Source: a virus
Lineage: Duplodnaviria > Heunggongvirae > Uroviricota > Caudoviricetes
Direction: 5' to 3' (one strand)
Virus record (IMG/VR): IMGVR_UViG_2671180828_000009
DNA length: 8,598 bases
Shown: positions 1-8,598 of the stretch, in pieces
Position numbering within the stretch: position 1 is the stretch's first letter
Layout of the letters: each line of letters opens with the position of its first letter
The notes under the pieces: generated by a model
What the model was told of the DNA's origin: nothing
The model's database searches: none
Seen by the model: only the letters and a program-made list of their open reading frames with translations
Made by a program: the position numbers and the translations under genes

Positions 1-51
1 CCATATGAAATCATAAGAAGAATCATGTTGATAATCATCACAACTTTTCAT
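1..51 (-). CDS. Tail fiber assembly chaperone, N-terminal fragment only (gene runs off the left edge)
   Basis: ATG at 51..49 on the minus strand, 5 nt after the H stop (TAA at 56..54), opens a frame (MKSCDDYQHDSSYDFIW...) that stays open to the window edge. Position matches P2 gene G downstream of H. AT-rich like the H 3' end. Only 17 codons visible. Confidence 0.35.
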   Translation of the reverse strand, partial: MKSCDDYQHDSSYDFIW

Positions 52-53
52 AT

Positions 54-1493
54 TTAATATCCAAATGCAATAAATACAGCGCCTGAAACTTTTGAATCAC
101 TGCTGGTTCCTGATGTCAAACAAGTTACAGCAGTAAACCCATCATTATATATACTTTCGCACGACGTAACGACTTGTGCATATGTCATTTTTGTGACAAA
201 CACACCCCATACTCCGTTAGGGAATGGCGTTGGATATGTAATAGGAAGCTGTTGTGGAATACCAATAGTTGTACTATTAGGAAGATTTCTTCGAAATATT
301 TGTATAATTAAACCATTCGGACCTTTAACCAACAAATTATCGCTTCCTTTTCCTGTTAGCTGAAAATAGCTCATGTCAGGGATTTCATAACTATTAGCAT
401 TACCAACATTTCTACCTGCCGCATTTCCCAAATGCCCTAAACCAAGATAAGTAAGAATTCCTTCTATATCCTTTCCACTCAAATTAGTCAGCGTATTATC
501 CAGCGGTTGTTTGCCTGCCAGCGCATTAAGCATTGTCGTGGCAAAGTTCGGGTCATTCCCCAGCGCCGCCGCCAGTTCGTTCAGTGTATCCAGTGCCGCA
601 GGTGCAGACCCCACCATTGCTGCAATTGCCGATTTCACAAAAGCTGTAGTGGCAATCTGTGTATTGTTGACCGACTGCGCCGCCGTGGGGGCTGTTGGCG
701 TTCCGGTGAGTGCCGGACTCGACAACGGTGCTTTTAGTGCCAGCACATTGTTAATGGTGGTACTGAAATTCGGATCATTGTTAATGGCTGCGGCTATTTC
801 TTTCAGCGTGTCCAGCGTGGCTGGCGCACCATTAATAAGGGCCGTCAGTGCCGCCTGAACAAACGCAGTGGTCGCAACCTGCGTGGTATTATTCCCCGCC
901 GCTGGCGTTGGCGCTTTGGGGGTTCCGGTAAACGTCGGACTTTCTTTGGGTGCATACTGTGAATGTGGGTCCTGTGCGGCAAGGTGTTTTGCCATCAGGT
1001 CATCCACATACACCTTCAGCTCCAGTACCTTGTCATCCACATACTTGCGGGTTGCCAGCACTACAGCAGGATCGATTTTCAGGGTGATATTTTCCGTGCT
1101 GCTGGTAATCAGCACCATGCGCACGGTCTGGGTGCGCCCGCTGCCTTCAGCCAGTTGCGGCTTATAGCTTTCCGGGCAGTTGCCCACGGCAATCAATGCC
1201 CCGGACTCATCAAACAGGCCCACTTCACGTATCCACCAACCTCCCTCGTTTTCAGGGATCACCTGTTCGGCAATAATCTGGCTGCTGTTCTGCGGGTCGA
1301 TATAGAGCATATTCAGCGCAGCCCGGCGTTTCTCATTTACCAGTGCCGTCTGCTTTGCGTCCGGCGTTGGCAATGTTCCGCCGCCATCGCCGACCGCCAT
1401 ATGGGTAATTTTTAAAGGCACACCGAGCGCGGCGGCGCTGGCAAGTTTCGCCGCGCCAATATCCGTCAGCAGGGTATAAAATTTTGTGCTCAT
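54..1493 (-). CDS. H: Tail fiber protein (P2 gpH-like), 479 aa, with a divergent C-terminal receptor-binding region
   Basis: N-terminus MSTKFYTLLTDIGAAKLASAAALGVPLKITHMAVGDGGG... resembles the recalled P2 gpH N-terminal domain. Internal motif ...NNTQIATTAFV...ALDTLNELAAALGNDPNFATTM.NALAGKQP is the conserved tail-fibre repeat seen in P2 H and lambda Stf. Position immediately after I in the late operon. Confidence 0.9.
   Translation of the reverse strand: MSTKFYTLLTDIGAAKLASAAALGVPLKITHMAVGDGGGTLPTPDAKQTALVNEKRRAALNMLYIDPQNSSQIIAEQVIPENEGGWWIREVGLFDESGALIAVGNCPESYKPQLAEGSGRTQTVRMVLITSSTENITLKIDPAVVLATRKYVDDKVLELKVYVDDLMAKHLAAQDPHSQYAPKESPTFTGTPKAPTPAAGNNTTQVATTAFVQAALTALINGAPATLDTLKEIAAAINNDPNFSTTINNVLALKAPLSSPALTGTPTAPTAAQSVNNTQIATTAFVKSAIAAMVGSAPAALDTLNELAAALGNDPNFATTMLNALAGKQPLDNTLTNLSGKDIEGILTYLGLGHLGNAAGRNVGNANSYEIPDMSYFQLTGKGSDNLLVKGPNGLIIQIFRRNLPNSTTIGIPQQLPITYPTPFPNGVWGVFVTKMTYAQVVTSCESIYNDGFTAVTCLTSGTSSDSKVSGAVFIAFGY
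501..941 (-). repeat. Two tandem copies of a ~73-codon tail-fibre repeat inside H (about nt 723..941 and 501..719)
   Basis: Residues 185-257 (SPTFTGTPKAPTPAAGNNTTQVATTAFVQAALTALINGAPATLDTLKEIAAAINNDPNFSTTINNVLALKAPL) and 259-331 (SPALTGTPTAPTAAQSVNNTQIATTAFVKSAIAAMVGSAPAALDTLNELAAALGNDPNFATTMLNALAGKQPL) align along their length with roughly 60% identity. Also visible as paired antisense ORF segments. Confidence 0.7.
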
Positions 1494-2095
1494 GGATTCA
1501 CTCTCATTGTGTCAATAACATGGACCGCCCCGCCTTCATGCGCGGTGCCGCCGGAAATAATTGTTTCGTTGATATACGGATAGATCGTGATTTCTTCACC
1601 AAGATAGCTGGCGGCTCCCACCCAATGCGGGCCGCTGGTCTGCAGATTGATGGACATGCCGATCATGTGACGGCTACATGGTTTGGCATCGCTTATCAGC
1701 CGCTCAAGCTCCAGATAGGTATCTTCAGTGATGCCCTGGTCCTGCACACCAATGTCCAGGCGAAACGTACCCGGTGTTTCTCCGGTCTGCCACCACTCAA
1801 TAATGCGGATCAGGAAGCCGAACGGCTCCACCACCCGCCGCACGGCACTGGTGGTTCCTTTATGCTGATGAATATAAAAAGCATCCTTCACCACCTGTCG
1901 TTTGACGCTTTCCGTCCAGCCCTCGTCCCAGCAATCCACAGAGAACGCCCAGGCGAGATAAGGCAGGAAACTGATCGGACAGGTCGTTGGATTCCACAAG
2001 TCACGCAGCGGCACCTGCAGATCAGAAATCCCGCTGCAGGTTTGCGCCAGTCGGCGCTCCAGTGGCGTTGAACCCGGTGGCAGCAGACTATTCAT
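1490..2095 (-). CDS. I: Baseplate assembly protein I (P2 gpI-like), 201 aa
   Basis: Motifs LPPGSTPLE, LWNPTTCP, LPYLAWAFSVDCWDEGW, GTFRLDIGV are characteristic of P2 gpI-family proteins. 4-nt ATGA overlap with the H start. Position between J and H. Confidence 0.85.
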   Translation of the reverse strand: MNSLLPPGSTPLERRLAQTCSGISDLQVPLRDLWNPTTCPISFLPYLAWAFSVDCWDEGWTESVKRQVVKDAFYIHQHKGTTSAVRRVVEPFGFLIRIIEWWQTGETPGTFRLDIGVQDQGITEDTYLELERLISDAKPCSRHMIGMSINLQTSGPHWVGAASYLGEEITIYPYINETIISGGTAHEGGAVHVIDTMRVNP

Positions 2096-2996
2096 CCGTT
2101 CCTCCGTTGGTTACGCTCCACTGCGTACATGATGCCGCCTGTGTTTTGTTCAGGACCACATCCGCCAGAGGAGAAGCCAGCTCCACACGCTGCACACCCT
2201 CAACATGCAGGGCGGCAAAGATGGCGCTACGGCGAATATCCCGACCAAGACGCGTCTGACTGGCGATGTACTTCTGCAGGCTGGCTTTTGCCGCTGCCAT
2301 TACCGGCTCTGCTTCCGGTCCCGGATAGAGAAAAATGGTGGCTTCCACGCGATACGGGATGATTTCTGCGCTGCGAACCGTCAGACGGTCAGCCACCGGG
2401 CGGACGTTCTCACTGTTCAGAGCTTTTTCCACCACGTCCAGCAGGTCTTTTTCTGCAGTTCCATCGCCTTCGCGGCTAAGGACAGTCAGCACCACCTCTG
2501 CAGGTGCCGGGCTGGTTGCACTGGCATCCGCCACCCGACCGTCGGCGCTTCGGGCATGAAATTCATAAGCTGCAGTTGGCCCCGCAACTGAAAGCCCTTC
2601 AAAGGCTGCAGGCACACGCAGGCGTAACGATTCATCGCTTTCCATCACAGCTGCAACGGGCGGCACAGCGTCATTATCAGCAGGCGTCACCGTCAGGCGT
2701 TTCACGTTGTAGTTGGCAGCGATTTGGTCCAGATCGCCGCCCATCGCATAAGCCACCATCACCGCCTGCGCGGCTTCGTTAATGCGCTGGCGCAGAAGCA
2801 ACTCACGGTAAGCGTTCTCCTGCAACAATTTGGTGACGGGTTCAGATTCCAGTTCCAGCGTGCGGATCACTGCTTCCTGCTCATCTTTCGGATGAAGCGC
2901 CACAAATTCGGCCTTGCGTTCGGCAAGCAGCGTCTCAAAGTCCGGCACATCCACAATCTGCGGCGCAGGCAACTGCGAAAGGTCAATCACTGCCAT
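2088..2996 (-). CDS. J: Baseplate assembly protein J (P2 gpJ-like), about 302 aa
   Basis: The ORF track opens at 3035, but the likely start is the ATG at 2996 (MAVIDLSQLPAPQIV...), giving the expected gpJ length. Position between W and I. Overlaps the W 3' end by 14 nt and the I start by 8 nt. Confidence 0.85.
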   Translation of the reverse strand: MAVIDLSQLPAPQIVDVPDFETLLAERKAEFVALHPKDEQEAVIRTLELESEPVTKLLQENAYRELLLRQRINEAAQAVMVAYAMGGDLDQIAANYNVKRLTVTPADNDAVPPVAAVMESDESLRLRVPAAFEGLSVAGPTAAYEFHARSADGRVADASATSPAPAEVVLTVLSREGDGTAEKDLLDVVEKALNSENVRPVADRLTVRSAEIIPYRVEATIFLYPGPEAEPVMAAAKASLQKYIASQTRLGRDIRRSAIFAALHVEGVQRVELASPLADVVLNKTQAASCTQWSVTNGGTDE

Positions 2997-3342
2997 TCTC
3001 TGCTCCTGTTGATACGGAAAGGGAAACAGGCACACCGCTATTACGCCGCCCGGTCAGCTCCACCACCATTGAACCGTCAAAATTACTGTTGATGGTGATG
3101 GAATCCAGCGTCAGCCGTGGCTCCCAGCGACTCAGCGCCACATACACTGCCGACATGACCTGCAGGCGTAACGCCGGATTTTGTGGCTGGTCTATCAGTG
3201 CCGACAGCAGGGAACCATATTCCCGGCGAGCAATGCGGCTACCCTGCGGCGTCAGCAAAATGTCCCGCACCGACTGGCGCAGATGGTCAATATCAGTAAT
3301 GGCTTTACCGCTGATATTGTTCATCCCGCTATAAAGCGTCAT
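2983..3342 (-). CDS. W: Baseplate wedge protein W (gp25-like), 119 aa
   Basis: Size and sequence (MTLYSGMN..., ...REYGSLL..IDQPQNPALRLQ...WEPR...) are consistent with P2 gpW. Start ATG overlaps the upstream stop as ATGA. Confidence 0.85.
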   Translation of the reverse strand: MTLYSGMNNISGKAITDIDHLRQSVRDILLTPQGSRIARREYGSLLSALIDQPQNPALRLQVMSAVYVALSRWEPRLTLDSITINSNFDGSMVVELTGRRNSGVPVSLSVSTGAENGSD

Positions 3343-3938
3343 ACCGGGCCTCCGGTTGTATCGCCGCCTTTCAGGACGCCAGTATGCTGATGCGCATCAA
3401 CCACGATCCCGTTAGAACTCATAGCTCCGCCGCCCTGGGTAAGGCACCAGGCCATCTCCCGCGCACGGCGGTTATCCAGCCCCTGATTAAAAACACCTTT
3501 CACATAAACCCAGCGCGGCAACTGTCGGCACGCATCCGCCCAGCGCCGCTGATTGAGCAATTTCACCAGCGTGGAGCTGCAGGCATTGCCTGTCCCCACG
3601 TTGAAGGCAAATGACACCACCGCGTCATACACTTTCTGCGGCGGCTGTTGCTTCACACACCTTTCCAGCGCCCGCTCCACACGCAGCACGTTGGAGATCA
3701 GCCCTTCCGCTGCCTGTCGTTCCGTAATGGTTTTGCCTGGAATGACACCAGATGTATTACCAATGCCGTCTGTCCAGACACCCGCGCTGCACTGATACGG
3801 CTGCAGACGACAGCCTTCGTAATCGGCAATCAGTTTCAGCCCCTCCACGGAGGTGTGAAGCTGCTGAAAACCCGGCAGCGTGGCAGCAATAGCCAGCACG
3901 GCTCCGACAAGGCAGCGTTTAACGATTGATGGATTCAT
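3339..3938 (-). CDS. SAR endolysin, T4-lysozyme (GH24) family, P1 Lyz-like, with a ~30 aa C-terminal extension
   Basis: Weakly hydrophobic Gly/Ala-rich N-terminus MNPSIVKRCLVGAVLAIAATLPG followed by ...YEGCRLQPYQCSAGVWTDGIGNT..., which closely matches the recalled P1 Lyz catalytic region (EGCRRDPYMCPAGVWTDGIGNT). Start chosen at the in-frame ATG 3938 because GGGAGGA sits immediately upstream; the ORF track opens at 3965. Confidence 0.8.
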   Translation of the reverse strand: MNPSIVKRCLVGAVLAIAATLPGFQQLHTSVEGLKLIADYEGCRLQPYQCSAGVWTDGIGNTSGVIPGKTITERQAAEGLISNVLRVERALERCVKQQPPQKVYDAVVSFAFNVGTGNACSSTLVKLLNQRRWADACRQLPRWVYVKGVFNQGLDNRRAREMAWCLTQGGGAMSSNGIVVDAHQHTGVLKGGDTTGGPV

Positions 3939-4134
3939 AGTCCTCCCGCGAGATCTGCCCGTCACGCAGAAGCTGGTAGGCTTTGTGTTTGTAGTACCAG
4001 TTGATAGCCAGCATCAGCACACCAATCATCAGGCCGCCCAGCGTTGAGGCATCCTTGATGGACAAATCGCCCAGCCAGGCCAGCACGACGGCGATGCAAT
4101 ACGTGATAAAGGCGCTGATTCGCTCAAGCGTCAT
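3919..4134 (-). CDS. Class II holin (possible pinholin), 71 aa
   Basis: Two predicted transmembrane helices (ISAFITYCIAVVLAWLG and LGGLMIGVLMLAINWYY) followed by a charged C-terminal tail. Sits immediately upstream of, and overlapping, the SAR endolysin gene. Confidence 0.6.
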   Translation of the reverse strand: MTLERISAFITYCIAVVLAWLGDLSIKDASTLGGLMIGVLMLAINWYYKHKAYQLLRDGQISREDYESINR

Positions 4135-4137
4135 AAT

Positions 4138-4341
4138 TCAGTCCCATAGCTGGACGGTCTGCACGGTGGTGGTTGTCGGTATGTCCGGCAGCTCCACCTG
4201 CAACCCGTGAGGTAAAAAGGGGCCGTATTCGGCAAGCCCCGGATTTGCCTTCAGTACCTGCTCCGTGACACCCTGCGTGCGCCCGTAATGACGCCAGCAA
4301 AGCGCGTCCACCGTGTCATACTGATGCGCACGCACTTTCAT
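4138..4341 (-). CDS. X: Tail protein X (P2 gpX-like), 67 aa
   Basis: MKVRAHQYDTVDALCWRHYGRTQGVTEQVLKANPGLAEYGPFLPHGLQVELPD closely resembles recalled P2 gpX. Exact expected size and position after L. Confidence 0.85.
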   Translation of the reverse strand: MKVRAHQYDTVDALCWRHYGRTQGVTEQVLKANPGLAEYGPFLPHGLQVELPDIPTTTTVQTVQLWD

Positions 4342-4805
4342 CAGATAAGCTCCACTGTGCAGTGCGGCGCATCCTGTACCCGGCTGATGGCCCAGCGGGC
4401 GTCACGCCACAAATCACCGCTGGCTTCTGCCAGTTCCTCGCCTCGCTTCACACCCGATGCCGTGGCGTCATAGTCCTGGTATCGTTCGTTGAGCATGGCG
4501 CGTGCCCAACAATAAACCGCGTTGAAATAGTGCTGAATGCGCTCACTTTTGCCGTCCAGCTGTTCCGCCGGGACTTCTGCCAGCGACACATACCCCAGCA
4601 TCTGCTGACGTCTGCGAAACTCATACAGCTCTGCGTTGACCTCCGAAATTGCCGACAGAGCAACCTGCTTTAAACGCGGCTGCGTCACCGTGCCGTCAGT
4701 GCGCATGACACTGCGAAACTCCGACAGGTCCACATCAGGCCAGAACGGCGTATTTCTGATGATTTCCGCCTGTTCCGGTGCCTGTTCTGGCGCAACAAAC
4801 TTCAT
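4341..4805 (-). CDS. L: Head completion/stabilisation protein L (P2 gpL-like), about 154 aa
   Basis: Start assigned to ATG 4805 (MKFVAPEQ...) preceded by AGGAGA; the ORF track opens further upstream at 4868 inside a GC-rich hairpin. Position immediately before X. Confidence 0.8.
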   Translation of the reverse strand: MKFVAPEQAPEQAEIIRNTPFWPDVDLSEFRSVMRTDGTVTQPRLKQVALSAISEVNAELYEFRRRQQMLGYVSLAEVPAEQLDGKSERIQHYFNAVYCWARAMLNERYQDYDATASGVKRGEELAEASGDLWRDARWAISRVQDAPHCTVELI

Positions 4806-4818
4806 GCTGCTTTCTCCT

Positions 4819-4880
4819 GAAATAAAGGGCGGTGGACGGGGTTTTGATGTGGCAGTGCCTTTCGCCACCCCGTGCCGCCC
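4819..4880 (-). terminator. Candidate intrinsic terminator or structured element between the N remnant and L
   Basis: GC-rich imperfect stem (gggcgg..acgggg at 4828-4842 pairing with ccccgt.ccgccc at 4868-4880, ~25-nt loop) followed on the transcribed strand by CTTTATTTC just upstream of the L ribosome-binding site. Confidence 0.3.
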
Positions 4881-4900
4881 GTGCGCGGGGGCACGTTCTG

Positions 4901-5614
4901 TCAGCGGCTGTCATTGCGCAGTCTGCGCTCCAGCTGCTGTTTGTCTTTTTTCACGCCACAGCGGGGATCGAGCTGTAACGCATGGTTGAGATGATTAAGG
5001 GCAGACGCCGGATTCCCGACTTTCACTGCGCCCGGTGTGGTTTCACCGCCCGTGGTGGTGCTGCCCATGACGTGATCCGGTGCATCCTCACGGATTTTCT
5101 GCAGCCAGCCTTTGTTCACATCCTGCAGCAGCGGGTTTTCGCTACGGTTGGAGGTTTTCGCACGCTTCACGCCGTTAAAGCCGATCATGATGCGGTCCAG
5201 TGCCTGACGTTTCACGATGGCGTTACGGATACGCACCTGGAAATCCTGAAACTTCGCCCACAGGTCCAGCTTCGCGTAGGTCAGCACCGTGTCAAAGTTG
5301 GTCTGCTCGCATTTGTATTCCACATCGACCATCAGCGTCGGATCGACAGGCTCACGCTCTTTCGCGGTGGTGTCAGTGGTTCCGGCAATGGTGCTGCCAA
5401 CACCCAGCCCCAGCAACTGACCAGACTGCTCAGTCACTGGCGTGACGTTAATCAGCGTCAGGAATGCGGCGGACTGCTGGATCTGGTCTTCCAGCGTCTG
5501 CTGTACAGACGGCTCCACGGTGAACTTGCTGGACAGTTCTTCAACTGCCACACCGTTCAGACGCGCCAGCTGCTGCAGGTAAGCGTTAAAAGCAAAGCGG
5601 GTATTCTTCTTCAT
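4901..5614 (-). pseudogene. N: Major capsid protein N, 3'-truncated (237 codons versus about 350 expected)
   Basis: N-terminal ~205 aa (MKKNTRFAFNAYL...KFTVEPSV...LDLWAKFQDFQVRIRNAIVKRQALDRIMIGFNGVKRA...) look like a P2 N-family capsid protein. It follows O as expected, but the ORF is about 120 codons short, has a basic non-capsid-like tail (KKDKQQLERRLRNDSR), and no M gene lies between it and L. Confidence 0.7.
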
Positions 5615-5630
5615 CAGGTTTTGTGCTCCA

Positions 5631-6464
5631 TCAGCAATTGGTCAGAGTGTCAGCGGGGGCGTTACCGCCTGTTGCACGCTGGCGGTAGTCCTGGCGGCTG
5701 TCTTCATGGCTCAGCTTGTCCACCAGTTCGTTAAAGGCGGTCAGCTGTGCCTGCAGGGCTGTCTCCAGCTCAGACAGGCGTTCTTCCTGTTCAGACAGGG
5801 ATTTTTCGGTGCGCGCACTCAGGTTTTGCTGCTCAGTGGCGACCAGCTCCACGGCCTTATGCACATCAGAGAACCGGGCATCGTCGGACTGCTCTTTTTT
5901 GGTAAACAGCGCCGTGACACGGGCAAACAGGGACGGCTTGTCCTCCTGGATTTCTTCCAGTTCGATCACTGTTTCCTCTGCGGCGGTAAAGAGATTGGCG
6001 GGATTCTGCTTGCGGTTTGCCAGTGGGTTATGGGCTGCACTGGCGCTGAATGTCAGCATTTCAGTGCCCAGACTGGCAGGGTCATCAGTGGCAGCCAGGC
6101 CGACCAGGTAGGCTTTGCCCGTATCAGCGAACTTCGGGCTGACTTCCATAGAGGTGAATAATTTCTGGCCTTTTTTCACCAGTTCCACCAGGGACTCCGT
6201 TGGCTCAACGTCGGCATACAGCGCCATCTTGCCTGCCAGCGGACCTTCCGTGATTTCTTCAGCAAACAGCGCCGTCACCTTGCCGTAGCGGTTAAAGGTG
6301 CTGTCCGGCAGATAAGACTTGATGTGCTCAAGGTTAATCAGCGCGGTATACACCGCCGGGTTGTAGCTGGCTGCCATCTGTTCCAGCCATTCTCGCTGGA
6401 TTTCGCGTCCGTCGGTGGTGGCACCTTCCACCCCGATGCGAAAACGCTTTGCTTTCACTGTCAT
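5631..6464 (-). CDS. O: Capsid scaffolding protein O (P2 gpO-like), 277 aa
   Basis: ...FRIGVEG..DGR...INLEH...YG.V..L.AE...; ...AYLVGLAATDDPASLGTE... and C-terminal ...ATGG....D.LTNC match recalled gpO. GGAG 8 nt upstream of the ATG. Divergent from P. Confidence 0.85.
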   Translation of the reverse strand: MTVKAKRFRIGVEGATTDGREIQREWLEQMAASYNPAVYTALINLEHIKSYLPDSTFNRYGKVTALFAEEITEGPLAGKMALYADVEPTESLVELVKKGQKLFTSMEVSPKFADTGKAYLVGLAATDDPASLGTEMLTFSASAAHNPLANRKQNPANLFTAAEETVIELEEIQEDKPSLFARVTALFTKKEQSDDARFSDVHKAVELVATEQQNLSARTEKSLSEQEERLSELETALQAQLTAFNELVDKLSHEDSRQDYRQRATGGNAPADTLTNC

Positions 6465-6542
6465 GAGCCGTGCTCCGTTAGAAAAAACTTACTGGAGCCT
6501 TATGGTTGCGGTGATGGGGGCAGTGAAACAATGCGCGGTATT

Positions 6543-6560
6543 TGTACCGACAACCACACA
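6543..6560. promoter_or_regulatory. TGT-N12-ACA dyad, candidate Ogr/Delta-type late-promoter activator site (most plausibly for the O operon)
   Basis: TGTaccgacaaccacACA at 6543..6560 in the 142-bp O/P divergent intergenic region. P2-family late promoters carry this dyad centred near -55. The spacing puts a minus-strand transcription start about 30 nt upstream of the O ATG. Confidence 0.4.
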
Positions 6561-6606
6561 AACCGCAGGCGGGGAAAGCCTTCATTCAAGGCTGTAGGTT
6601 TGTGCC

Positions 6607-7578
6607 ATGAACACCACACTGACACCCGCAGATCTCGATCCCCGTCGGCAGGCCATGCTGCTGTACTTTCAGGGATACCGCGTAGCCCGCATTGCTGAAA
6701 TGCTGGGCGAGAAAGTTGCAACCGTTCACAGCTGGAAAAAACGCGACAAGTGGGGTGACTATGGGCCGCTGGATCAGATGCAGCTCACCACCGCCGCACG
6801 CTACTGCCAGCTCATCATGAAGGAGCACAAAGAAGGGAAAGATTTCAAAGAGATTGACCTGCTGGCGCGCCAGTCTGAGCGCCACGCGCGGATCGGCAAG
6901 TTTAACAATGGCGGCAACGAATCCGACTTAAACCCTAACGTCGCCAACCGCAACAAAGGCCCACGCCGTCAGCCGGAAAAGAATGTTTTCACCGATGAGC
7001 AGATTGAGAAGCTGGAAGAAATCTTCCATTCCTCCATGTTCAACTACCAGCGCCACTGGTGGGAAGCCGGAAAAACCAACCGCATCCGCAACCTGCTGAA
7101 GTCACGCCAGATCGGCGCGACCTTTTACTTTGCCCGTGAAGCCCTGATTGACGCCCTGCTGACCGGACGTAACCAGATTTTCCTTTCCGCCAGCAAGGCA
7201 CAGGCCCACGTCTTTAAGCAGTACATCATCGACTTCGCCAAAGAAGTGGAGGTGGAGTTGAAAGGCGATCCGATGGTGCTTCCTAACGGGGCCACGCTTT
7301 ACTTCCTCGGCACCAATGCCCGCACTGCCCAGAGTTATCACGGCAACCTGTATCTGGATGAATATTTCTGGATACCGAAATTCCAGGAGCTGCGCAAAGT
7401 GGCTTCCGGTATGGCTATTCACAAGAAATGGCGACAAACCTATTTTTCCACGCCATCCAGCCTGACACACAGTGCTTATCCGTTCTGGTCCGGTGCGCTA
7501 TTCAACCGTGGGCGCAACAAAGCCGATACCGCACCTGCAGCAACACGCCCGATCTCTGCGGTTGCACTCATGACGTAA
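6607..7578 (+). pseudogene. P: Terminase large subunit P, truncated (323 codons versus about 590 expected)
   Basis: N-terminal region (...[17 protein letters not shown]...[10 protein letters not shown]..., ...[17 protein letters not shown]...) is consistent with the P2 gpP N-terminal and ATPase region. The frame ends in a non-terminase-like tail overlapping the convergent cII-like gene. No portal gene Q follows. Confidence 0.75.
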
Positions 7579-7868
7579 TGTGGCAGTTTCTCTTTTGCCA
7601 CCTCATTAATTGGTACGCATGGCAGGCAGTGAATCTGTGCCAGAAAACCATCTACCAACGTTGAATCTTCAGTCAGATCGGTAAGCAGCCAGATTTCTGG
7701 TGCGGTTAATAAATGAGGTTGAGCTGGGTTCAGCTTGTTCCGCAGAATCTGCACATTCATGCCCGCACGTTCTGCCAGTTGCACCAGATTGTGGCGCAGT
7801 GCGAATGCACGACAGGCTTCATCAAAATGTGGATGTTTGGAAACTTGGTAATCAAACATGGTTTTCAA
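7476..7868 (-). CDS. cII: Phage CII-like regulatory protein (186 CII / CP76 family), probably 3'-truncated
   Basis: [45 protein letters not shown]...[25 protein letters not shown] matches the recalled CP76/CII family N-terminal region. The real start may be M4 at 7859. 130 aa versus about 165-170 for family members. Confidence 0.65.
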
Positions 7869-7873
7869 CTCCG

Positions 7874-7915
7874 AACTTATCGCAAAATCGAACTCAGCGT
7901 CTTATTGCGAAAATA
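7874..7915. promoter_or_regulatory. Paired repeats in the apl-cII intergenic region
   Basis: CTTATCGCAAAAT (7875-7887) and CTTATTGCGAAAAT (7901-7914) form a direct repeat about 26 bp apart; they contain the inverted hexamers TCGCAA / TTGCGA. Confidence 0.25.
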
Positions 7916-7923
7916 GACGTCTA

Positions 7924-8127
7924 TTAAGCAGACAAAGCATCAACAGTCAGAGCAGCCAGGTTAATCATTACCTTTTCACGTTTTTTGTCTTTACGAAGAC
8001 GATGACGAGGTAGTCGGCCATCAGCCAACATGTCGTTAATCGTATCAATAGAAAGGCCAGTCAGTTCGCTATAACGTTCGATTGTGACATGTGGTGTATT
8101 CAGAGTAATTGAAATGTTAGGTGTCAT
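7924..8127 (-). CDS. Small helix-turn-helix DNA-binding protein, Apl/Cox-like excisionase-regulator, 67 aa
   Basis: ...[27 protein letters not shown]... is an excisionase-type HTH. First gene of the leftward operon, divergent from cI and upstream of cII, as apl is in 186. Confidence 0.5.
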
Positions 8128-8272
8128 AAGGCAACATTCCTTCTAGATATGGCTTGTGGCGAGCCGTTGTTTGTCGTGATTAGTAGTGAAGGCTCCAAAA
8201 GAACACTTCTGGTTCAACTTTAAGATCGCTTTTGGAATCTGTCAACGAATTTTGGATTTCTTTGGAGGACTT
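8128..8272. promoter_or_regulatory. Immunity switch region between the divergent apl-like and cI genes
   Basis: 145-bp intergenic region. Perfect 8-bp inverted repeat TCCAAAAG (8194-8201) / CTTTTGGA (8229-8236) with further TTTGGA copies at 8251 and 8261. GGAGG at 8264-8268 ahead of the cI GTG. No promoter hexamers could be placed confidently. Confidence 0.4.
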
Positions 8273-8598
8273 GTGGATTTCAATAGCGGCGGTAAGAAAG
8301 CCATAGAACGTTTAGTTGAAGCATATGGGTTCGGTACCCGTCAGGCTCTCTGTGATCATTTAGGTGTTTCTAAGAGCACCATGGCAACGCGCTATATGCG
8401 TGATATTTTTCCAGCAGATTGGGTAATCCAGTGCGCCCTTGAAACGGGCACCTCGCTTAATTGGCTAACAACAGGGCATGGTTCAAAGCAAGCATCAGCA
8501 AATACAAATACTATAGAAGTAGAAAAATATTTATTGTCTGATGGAGCATTGCAGAAAGACGGTTTTTATATTTTTGATAAGGGATTTCTACCCTCTAC
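8273..8598 (+). CDS. cI: CI-family repressor (186 CI-like N-terminal HTH domain), 5' part only
   Basis: Open frame from GTG 8273 to the window edge: VDFNSGGKKAIERLVEAYGFGTRQALCDHLGVSKSTMATRYMRDIFPADWVIQCALETGTSLNWLTTGHG..., matching the 186 CI-type HTH pattern. Not in the ORF track because it has a non-ATG start and no stop within the window. Confidence 0.7.
   Translation, partial: MDFNSGGKKAIERLVEAYGFGTRQALCDHLGVSKSTMATRYMRDIFPADWVIQCALETGTSLNWLTTGHGSKQASANTNTIEVEKYLLSDGALQKDGFYIFDKGFLPS

Follow-up and report, generated by a model that had tools for sequence, protein, structure and literature searches.

The 3′ end of the tail fibre gene H in this prophage, together with the start of the adjacent chaperone gene tfa, is much more AT-rich than the rest of the operon, which raises the question of whether the distal part of the fibre was exchanged as a host-range cassette and where such a cassette came from. 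We analyzed the window, that is, the whole 8,598-nt stretch of DNA, with the following features.

54..1493, minus strand: H, the tail fibre gene of a P2/186-like prophage; ORF of 479 aa, ending in ...AVFIAFGY
501..1493, minus strand: conserved P2-type part of H, residues 1-331; GC 0.556
435..500, minus strand: AT-rich linker, H residues 332-353, DNTLTNLSGKDIEGILTYLGLG; GC 0.35; putative recombination joint
57..434, minus strand: tip-specific segment, H residues 354-479; GC 0.373, GC3 0.222
57-377, minus strand: gp53-like jellyroll (lectin-like "foot"), residues ~373-479; presumed receptor-binding part
1..51, minus strand: 5′ end of tfa, 17 codons, MKSCDDYQHDSSYDFIW, truncated where the window ends
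432..457, no strand assigned: putative decayed crossover site of a Din-family (Gin/Cin/Pin-type) invertase, ATGCCCTAAACCAAGATAAGTAAGAA on the plus strand, over codons I346-H354

The explanation that we consider quite probable is that a swapped, AT-rich tip and tfa form the edge of an island of about 2.1 kb, which would have been placed on a P2-type shaft and joined to it at the linker. A cassette exchange as such is well supported by the sequence comparisons described below.

The tail fibre H and the assembly protein G of phage P2 were reportedly described by Haggard-Ljungquist et al. in 1992. In the window, J (PF04865), I (PF09684), H, and tfa lie consecutively on the minus strand, which is the gene order of the P2 late tail operon. 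H residues 1-331 consist of a baseplate-proximal collar domain and two shaft repeats of about 76 aa (residues 182-257 and 256-335); PF12571, the N-terminal tail-collar fibre domain, was found on residues 1-150 with an E value of 2.1e-65, and the second repeat was 60.5% identical to the first over 76 aa (E 2e-26). P2 H (reference record NC_001895) was aligned by BLASTP with residues 1-332 at 54% identity (E 4e-91); the alignment was colinear and ended at ...NALAGKQP[L/K]D, and nothing significant was found past residue 332, that is, to P2 H 330-669. Since the alignment stops at this residue, H is a P2-type fibre in its proximal two thirds only. The original prediction that distal H does not resemble P2 H was upheld by this result, and a C-terminal match over the full length of P2 H was not seen. 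The conserved part was 95-97% identical in about 1200 E. coli genomes. Furthermore, a PDB sequence search with full-length H gave matches only in the shaft repeats (9d93 and 9k09) and none for the tip.

The locus resembles P2 H/G in its operon position (I-H-tfa-moron site-sheath), in the N-terminal collar domain, in a fall of GC toward the tip, and in the classic mosaicism of tip and tfa. In contrast, neither the tip nor Tfa is related by sequence to P2 H(330-669) or G, H has 190 aa less than its P2 counterpart, and the GC fall is much deeper (0.37 versus about 0.42).

The GC content of nt 1-503 was 0.358 (0.264 for nt 1-53 and 0.367 for nt 54-500), compared with 0.556 for the remaining part of H (504-1493) and 0.567 for 1494-7578. 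The segments of 447 nt within 504-7578 had a mean GC of 0.566 with a standard deviation of 0.016 and a minimum of 0.521; nt 54-500 were located at z = -12.3 with respect to all of these segments. When the entire 8.6 kb was scanned, the segments with the lowest GC began at nt 3-13. A two-segment maximum-likelihood fit placed the change point at nt 499 (H residue 331/332) and improved the log-likelihood by 37 nats. It had been predicted that GC falls across nt 54-500 into the tfa start and that the break follows the second repeat; both points agreed with the calculation, as GC was 0.36 there versus 0.57 elsewhere and the repeat spans residues 256-335. The composition was clearly not uniform, with GC3 showing a still larger difference (0.22 versus 0.59).

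The GC drop in H is mainly synonymous: GC3 was 0.592 for residues 1-331, 0.227 for residues 332-353, and 0.222 for residues 354-479. First and second codon positions also shifted (GC1 0.44 and GC2 0.46 in the tip, versus 0.60 and 0.48 in the rest), as would be expected if the low GC came from an Asn/Ile/Thr-rich composition of the beta-rich tip or from chance. However, the biggest shift was at third positions, the deviation was as large as the z value given above, and the bias held where the residue is shared with higher-GC homologues. When codons were paired at identical amino acids, the G/C-ending fraction was 0.18-0.19 in the window tip versus 0.47-0.55 in its nearest relatives (sign tests against the two nearest relatives, p = 4e-5 and 6e-7). 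The explanation by amino-acid composition or chance, which we rate as extremely improbable, was refuted by the GC3 values and the paired-codon tests. GC3 at conserved residues was also depressed in the relatives (0.34-0.55 for the tip and 0.24-0.36 for Tfa), which makes the window allele the end point of a continuum rather than an isolated case. All P2-like H genes have an AT-rich linker, and for this reason the GC fall starts about 11 codons ahead of the unique sequence.

Promoter and terminator scans of nt 1-700 gave nothing better than shuffled sequences, and an Rfam search gave no match. An antisense ORF at 193-363 on the plus strand was discarded as being without support.

The tip itself was assigned to a family by profile and by predicted structure. 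PF21882 matched H residues 392-479 with 29.4 bits (Pfam gathering cut-off, 24.9 bits) over profile positions 3-84 of 84, and most of the tip homologues carry a precomputed PF21882 assignment. The AlphaFold2 model of the tip, calculated as a monomer, was all-beta with a pLDDT of 76, the first 14 residues being disordered. Foldseek matched this model to 6cxb, 6cl5, 6cl6, 6ct8, and 4mtm. The matches to the R1/R2 pyocin fibre foot had E values of 1.7e-5 to 6e-4 and TM scores of 0.54-0.63, with 6cxb at E 1.7e-5, TM 0.63, and rmsd 2.7, and that to gp53 of Acinetobacter phage AP22 (4mtm) had an E value of 1.3e-3, a TM score of 0.59, and an rmsd of 7.8 A. The H tip is thus predicted to share the jellyroll fold of AP22 gp53 and the R-pyocin foot.

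These two systems are also alike in arrangement. The R-pyocin fibres PA0620 and PALES_06171 with the chaperone PA0621 (6cl5, 6cl6, 6cxb, and 6ct8) and AP22 gp53 (4mtm; PF21882) likewise have a C-terminal jellyroll foot that ends a P2-type fibre and depends on a downstream chaperone. The sequence identity to both was only 17-22%, and the pyocin head and shaft domains located upstream of the foot are absent in H. The R-pyocin foot was described as a lectin jellyroll of the discoidin-like type, dependent on co-expression of a chaperone, and was proposed to bind LPS sugars (PMC6363177). By analogy, a surface carbohydrate such as LPS is the probable ligand of the H tip, which would form a trimeric distal carbohydrate-binding domain like that of the pyocin foot (PMC6363177).

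The chaperone gene was then placed with respect to the tip. The ATG of tfa is at nt 51, not at 50 or 53, leaving a 2-nt gap after the H stop codon. LR-64-2 was 100% identical to the window over nt 1-1600, with tfa annotated at the matching position; the full gene encodes 158 aa in identical loci and is named "yfdK"/c0969 in CFT073. Full-length Tfa of LR-64-2, the 158-aa product whose first 17 codons correspond to window nt 51-1, matched PF02413 Caudo_TAP with 81.7 bits (cut-off, 22.1 bits) and also phrog_188, and P2 G gave no match with Tfa. Among the loci with listed genes, a Caudo_TAP gene came next after the tip relative in the three off-scaffold loci (L006, L008, and L010) and in the second P2-like allele (L026). 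Across these four contexts, the N-terminal 85 residues were 45-54% identical to those of the present Tfa, and the identity of the C-terminal part ranged from 15% to 62%. That tfa travels with the tip, as had been predicted, is supported by this N-domain-matched synteny. In the model of PMC9608196, a variable N-domain of Tfa binds the fibre and a conserved C-domain trimerises; the identity pattern appears to fit this model. Hence we infer from the synteny and the matched N-domains that Tfa is cognate to the H tip, in which case its N-domain would grip the tip and its C-domain would drive trimerisation.

Next to be considered is the junction at which the tip module begins. The sequence of nt 468-503 was near-identical to other E. 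coli P2-like H genes (97% in some), nt 436-503 were 80-87% identical in about 1265 genomes, and all nucleotide homology with other P2-like H genes ended at nt 435, after G353. In the alignment with these genes, the linker was identical through codon 342 and divergent at codons 343-349, followed by a conserved core at codons 350-353. The boundary had been expected at about residue 331; this holds for the GC break but not for the exchange boundary, which is at codons 343-353, 11-22 codons downstream.

Invertible segments are reportedly known from the work of Sandmeier, Iida and Arber in 1992/1994 as Mu G (S/U and S'/U'), P1 C, e14 P, and p15B Min. In the invertible relatives, the NLGLG/YLGLG codons carry AAACC-NN-GGTTT with 0-1 mismatch. 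The site at 432-457 matched that of L002 at 21 of 26 positions (counted by hand), with three mismatches in the core. An inverted partner site was found in L002, L008, and L020, and an adjacent resolvase gene in L002, L006, L008, and L010. As in the Mu G and P1 C segments, where each arm consists of a tip and its own Tfa, the junction of constant and variable parts lies at a conserved peptide, here encoded by the putative crossover site; unlike them, the window locus has no invertase, second arm, or partner site, and its putative crossover site is decayed. In both LR-64-2 and CFT073, the acyltransferase gene is all that separates tfa from the sheath gene; no invertase, second tfa, or partner site was found there. 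An active invertible switch was rejected for lack of an invertase and a partner site in these two genomes.

These results suggest how the module may have been joined. The tip is joined to a standard P2-type shaft within the conserved linker (residues 332-353), whose YLGLG codons appear to carry a now-decayed invertase crossover site. Where Mu-like and other myovirus prophages carry tip relatives in invertible segments for host range, these relatives start at the same junction. Since the junction is shared with the invertible relatives, recombination between the linker and the conserved sheath-promoter side is the most likely route, by which the cassette may have been installed and later passed among P2-like lineages. 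Such an exchange would have altered the host specificity.

A more specific history, compatible with the exchange described above and refining it, is that the cassette represents one arm, now frozen, of an earlier host-range switch of the Mu G / P1 C type; our judgement on this falls only slightly short of an even balance. The ancestor would have carried H-constant, tip-tfa, tfa'-tip', and an invertase, with the second arm and the invertase later replaced by the acyltransferase gene neaT, which indeed occupies their expected place. Such a layout, with the site at the same YLGLG codons, was present in WL7562 (L002), a P2-like prophage about 96% identical upstream, and it is still kept in many E. 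coli P2-like prophages; the tip relatives also lie inside invertible segments. Retention of 21 of the 26 site positions with a decayed left half-site is what is expected after inversion stops. On the other hand, in LR-64-2 and CFT073 no remnant of an invertase, second tfa, or partner site was seen in the interval from tfa to the sheath gene, and the conserved core might persist simply for encoding the LGLG peptide.

The exchanged segment, to return to the preferred explanation, extends past the window edge. In LR-64-2 and CFT073, the AT-rich island of about 2.1 kb runs through tfa and neaT up to the sheath promoter, with a GC content of 0.37 for the H tip, 0.36 for tfa, and 0.30 for neaT, and of 0.56-0.57 for the flanks. 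The gene neaT is located outside the window, next to tfa on the opposite strand, in the P2 moron site between G and FI, and encodes a 343-aa Acyl_transf_3 membrane protein (PF01757 and phrog_3333). In order, the island comprises the last ~126-137 codons of H with the gp53-like jellyroll foot, the gene of the presumably cognate Tfa, and then neaT.

The same cassette is present in prophage phi-b0847 of CFT073 (c0969 "yfdK" as tfa, c0970 as neaT, and H upstream), at the same chromosomal site near ybjL/rcdA; the tip was 99.0% and the tfa and neaT tract 99.1% identical to the window lineage. Unlike the complete phi-b0847, the window prophage is without about 13 kb owing to three internal deletions, and the window is a phi-b0847-like, defective, P2/186-like prophage of E. 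coli. Because of these deletions, the cassette is a relic that no longer works as a determinant of host range; the window prophage cannot make virions, and we therefore ascribe no current role in host range to this copy.

Between LR-64-2 (the window lineage) and CFT073, the island differed at 26 of 2104 nt and the flanks at 112 of 2818 nt (Fisher p = 2.4e-9). This roughly 3-fold lower divergence of the island suggests a recent exchange. In addition, other E. coli P2-like prophages were found to carry at this position a second, diverged allele of all three genes, with identities of 75-78% for the tip, 58% for Tfa, and 75% for the acyltransferase, and this allele is also AT-rich. Wiles et al. 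2013 (PMC3573123) described neaT as an acquired gene and listed neaT (29.8% GC) and c0969 (35.4% GC) as outliers; the H tip is not placed in the island in their text and supplementary files.

We also attempted to find the source of the cassette. Whereas the upstream part of H was present in about 1200 complete E. coli genomes, nt 1-435 were present in only 9 of 5426. Tip relatives with 58-78% amino acid identity sit on unrelated scaffolds, including Mu-like baseplates and other myovirus prophages. Outside the phi-b0847 lineage, no tip relative above 78% was found in 5.8 billion proteins, species-representative genomes, IMG/VR, JGI metagenomes, 50,697 phage records, or 72,556 plasmids. A tblastn search of the tip against the phage and plasmid records gave no match, and the sole match in the species-representative genomes was from Xenorhabdus (42-46% identity). 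The nearest non-self relatives of Tfa (58%) and NeaT (76%) were from E. coli and Citrobacter. Apart from the Xenorhabdus match, the tip relatives found were enterobacterial; every relative was surrounded by DNA of 0.48-0.58 GC, and a relative in a low-GC genome or phage context was found in none of the collections searched. The original prediction of a host-range cassette taken with its cognate chaperone from a lower-GC donor is consequently supported in part: the tip and tfa form a separate exchangeable module, but no donor was found, and the relatives, all at 78% or below, lie in DNA of 0.48-0.58 GC. Acquisition of the island from a lower-GC donor is unproven.

The AT-richness may instead be a maintained property of accessory modules (fibre tips, Tfa, and surface-modifying morons) and not a fingerprint of the donor, the cassette having long circulated in the enterobacterial phage pool; selection or biased mutation would keep it AT-rich, with H-NS silencing or fast evolution as one possible reason. 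We hold this only tentatively. Both of the diverged three-gene alleles are AT-rich in E. coli prophages, the Citrobacter, Salmonella, and E. coli relatives have a GC3 of 0.24-0.47 at conserved residues, and none of the relatives resides in a low-GC genome. In P2 itself, GC falls within H from 0.55 to about 0.42 at the tip and is 0.44 in G (range of tip and G, 0.39-0.47); fibre tips of this family generally show a moderate dip in GC. It was argued explicitly that the AT-richness of neaT need not mirror the donor genome, and the neaT homologues are more AT-rich than their host genomes even in low-GC Firmicutes (PMC3573123). Against this, the paired codons of the window tip (0.18-0.19 G/C-ending versus 0.47-0.55 in the nearest relatives) show a bias that residence in a low-GC genome predicts and for which no selective reason is known; moreover, phages from low-GC relatives of E. 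coli are thinly sampled.

Finally, the swapped tip was considered together with its neighbor. NeaT is similar to the phage O-acetyltransferase morons (Sf6 Oac; PF01757 and phrog_3333) in being the product of an Acyl_transf_3 gene in a moron site, although Wiles et al. (PMC3573123) described surface, aggregation, and virulence phenotypes and found no defined modification. The H tip, Tfa, and NeaT could be a co-inherited functional triad in which NeaT acylates the surface glycan (LPS or a different envelope polysaccharide) bound by the tip, so that the prophage masks its own receptor; we consider this unlikely as matters stand. The H-tfa-neaT block is intact in both degraded copies (the window and LR-64-2), and a Citrobacter remnant keeps neaT. 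The retained block, its low divergence, and the two alleles that differ in all three genes are compatible with such a triad.

The swapped tip is an ordinary example of well-known phage mosaicism, and intact phi-b0847 has already been published. Tail-fibre tips set the host range of phages and tailocins, and cassettes of a tip and its chaperone are units for retargeting phages and R-pyocins. The tip family described here is uncharacterised and without a counterpart among 50,697 deposited phage genomes; its rarity is seen from the 9 of 5426 complete E. coli genomes that carry it. In addition, the tip is physically linked to neaT, for which a role in bacteraemia has been published; phenotypes were also published for deletion of "yfdK" (tfa) in CFT073. 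The combination of tip, chaperone, and neaT in a single AT-rich block provides a concrete hypothesis for what NeaT modifies. If the three genes do act as a triad, the virulence and aggregation phenotypes of neaT and "yfdK" in CFT073 would be by-products of phage receptor biology.

Base composition changes sharply within the tail fibre gene H. Nucleotides 1-503 had a GC content of 0.358, whereas the remainder of H reached 0.556 and nt 1494-7578 reached 0.567. The best two-segment change point fell at nt 499 (gain 37 nats). When all 447-nt windows across the late operon were compared (mean GC 0.566, sd 0.016, minimum 0.521), nt 54-500 stood at z = -12.3. GC3 went from 0.59 before residue 331 to 0.22 after it. 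The genes concerned are as follows.

nt 51-1, minus strand: tfa, tail fibre assembly (chaperone) gene, 17 codons, interrupted by the window edge
nt 54-1493, minus strand: H, tail fibre gene, 479 aa (linker, residues 332-353; tip, residues 354-479)

The two shaft repeats proved real (residues 256-335 vs 182-257, 60.5% identity, E 2e-26), and the GC break follows directly on the second, as had been predicted. The distal part of H was also correctly described as unlike P2 H, whose alignment to the window's H extended up to residue 332 (E 4e-91) with none past that residue; P2 G did not match the chaperone. The low-GC feature is real, and the original prediction of an exchanged receptor-binding tip with its chaperone is right at its core, but its boundary, extent, present-day function and donor need correction.

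Three boundaries have to be separated: the GC change point (nt ~499), the end of near-identity (codon 342) and the end of nucleotide homology (nt 435). Nucleotides 468-503 (codons 332-342) were near-identical in other P2-like H genes of E. coli and AT-rich there too, and the nearest of these, that of the P2-like locus WL7562 (L002), diverged from codon 343 onward. A 12-nt core, CTTGGTTTAGGG (L350-G353), is common to the window and WL7562; below nt 435, nucleotide homology was gone. Only 9 of 5426 complete genomes contained nt 1-435, against ~1265 for the linker and ~1200 for the rest of H. The module boundary placed at about residue 331 thus holds for composition, but sequence divergence starts later.

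In relatives with an adjacent resolvase gene, the NLGLG/YLGLG codons form the Din-family core AAACC-NN-GGTTT, and three of these relatives carry an inverted partner site.

L008 (other E. coli myovirus prophage): site at 4333, partner at 6236
L002 (WL7562): site at 4008, partner at 2358
L020: two sites
L006, L016, L017: one site each

At 21 of 26 positions, by our own count, the window's copy (nt 432-457) agreed with the site of L002; three mismatches fell in its core. No invertase, second arm or partner site was present in the loci of LR-64-2 and CFT073, which over nt 1-1600 were 100% and 96.9% identical to the window, respectively. Judged by sequence, the fibre junction is probably an invertase crossover site, and these absences together with the core mismatches mark it as now a relic. 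An active invertible switch was rejected on the same absences.

PF21882 (Gp53-like_C) matched H residues 392-479 above threshold, and PHROGs assigned residues 331-479 to tail-fibre families. Residues 354-479, modelled with AlphaFold2 (pLDDT 76), came out all-beta with the first 14 residues disordered, and the model matched the C-terminal foot of R1/R2 pyocin fibres (6cxb, E 1.7e-5, TM 0.63; 6cl5, 6cl6 and 6ct8) as well as AP22 gp53 (4mtm, E 1.3e-3). LPS sugar binding via variable distal loops has been proposed for the pyocin foot, which is soluble only with its co-expressed chaperone (PMC6363177). From this likeness of the modelled fold, we infer on good grounds that the tip would bind a receptor. 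An antisense ORF of 56 aa (193-363, plus strand) within the tip-coding region had no promoter signal above shuffled background and is probably spurious.

In LR-64-2 and CFT073, where tfa is complete, it encodes a Caudo_TAP protein of 158 aa. Relatives of the tip were found in a Citrobacter Mu-like baseplate (L006), the other E. coli myovirus prophage (L008) and a Salmonella P2-like invertible segment (L010), and Tfa is the next gene in all three. The N-terminal 85 residues of these Tfas were 45-46% identical to the window-lineage Tfa, while the C-terminal halves were either related (53%) or unrelated (15-18%). In the modular Tfa model, a variable N-domain grips the fibre and a conserved C-domain trimerises (PMC9608196). 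The apparent tracking of the tip by the N-domain agrees with this model and supports the predicted "cognate" chaperone.

Although nt 1-503 are indeed AT-rich, the tract extends past the window edge to ~2.1 kb in LR-64-2 and CFT073, on through tfa and an acyltransferase gene (GC: linker 0.35, tip 0.37, tfa 0.36, acyltransferase 0.30), and returns to 0.57 in the sheath gene.

LR-64-2 locus (L001) 7560-8591, ~1.0-1.5 kb beyond window nt 1, opposite strand to tfa: neaT, 343-aa Acyl_transf_3 membrane protein, 30% GC

In prophage phi-b0847 this gene carries the name neaT (c0970), and tfa corresponds to "yfdK" (c0969). neaT aids CFT073 fitness in bacteraemia (Wiles et al. 2013, PMC3573123), deletion of "yfdK" is likewise attenuating in zebrafish, and both were reported there as GC outliers (neaT 29.8%, c0969 35.4%). 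In three Citrobacter freundii contigs (L028-L030, ~2300-5300), a heavily decayed P2-like prophage beside ybjL retains an intact neaT-like gene (76% identical) next to sheath, tube and tfa fragments; the acyltransferase may therefore be kept after phage death.

A second allele of the three-gene block occupies the same position in further P2-like prophages of E. coli (L026, L027), with the tip 75-78%, Tfa 58% and acyltransferase 75% identical to the window lineage, and is likewise AT-rich (0.40, 0.37 and 0.31 GC). Between the window lineage and CFT073, 1.2% of sites differed in the island vs 4.0% in the flanks (Fisher p = 2.4e-9). The low-divergence block (L001 6974-9573 vs 3974-6573 of the CFT073 locus) runs from the linker into the sheath gene, of which it takes in the first ~400 nt; bins of 200 nt held 0-6 differences inside it and mostly 6-19 on either side. 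The pattern suggests a recent recombination tract, and the three-gene block has accordingly passed from one prophage lineage to another since the flanks diverged. Such mosaic divergence and the Tfa beside tip relatives bear out the exchange of the tip with its chaperone.

A lower-GC donor had also been proposed. At residues identical to the nearest relatives, G/C-ending codons made up 0.18-0.19 in the window tip vs 0.47-0.55 (sign tests 4e-5, 6e-7); in comparisons with other relatives, and in Tfa, the contrast was smaller or not significant. Tip GC in relatives is 0.40-0.52. An unproven low-GC source would account most simply for this synonymous bias. No relative more than 78% identical was found outside the phi-b0847 lineage anywhere searched, and the only match among 185,579 species-representative genomes was Xenorhabdus kozodoii (42-46% identity). 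Alternatively, AT-richness was maintained inside the enterobacterial phage pool without such a donor, a reading with real support: every relative sits in DNA of 0.48-0.58 GC, and Wiles et al. 2013 argued that the donor genome need not share such AT-richness (PMC3573123).

The DNA of the window is E. coli. Its late genes all run on the minus strand, in the order given (tfa, H, I, J, W, a lysozyme ORF with gpV apex motif, holin, X, L, truncated N (capsid) and O (scaffold)); the plus strand carries a truncated terminase P, then CII-like and Apl/Cox-like genes. Relative to the complete CFT073 prophage, there are three internal deletions.

~2.3 kb, junction near 3445-3449 (5-nt overlap): lysA to most of V, including lysB/C, R and S
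~1 kb, junction near 5013-5027 (15-nt overlap): end of N and most of M
~9.6 kb, junction 7525-7528: rest of P, portal gene, replication/early genes

The prophage is therefore defective, and the region cannot be called a present-day host-range cassette. The lysozyme ORF (3339-3965, minus) is a deletion fusion of PF00959 lysozyme (residues 48-170) into the gpV apex motif (residues 186-208); the PF05125 match of N (4901-5614, minus) covers only positions 1-189 of 327, and P (6607-7578, plus) ends after 323 codons, fused to the CII-like region. LR-64-2 has a separate, larger deletion fusing J to O. The J ORF as listed (2088-3035, minus) has a GTG start 13 codons upstream of the ATG of CFT073's 302-aa baseplate J, and the extra codons are probably an ORF-listing artefact. 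A second lower-GC stretch (7800-8598, 0.40-0.48) lies at the immunity/early end, with the CII-like gene and the Apl/Cox-like ORF of 67 aa; it was only 87% identical to CFT073, vs 96-98% for late genes.

Exchange of tip and chaperone is a textbook phenomenon for the fibres of P2, Mu and P1, and the phi-b0847 prophage itself is already in the literature. The novelty is modest: the gp53-like family gains an uncharacterised tip variant, the fibre junction falls on a putative decayed crossover site, and the tip belongs to the same AT-rich block as neaT.
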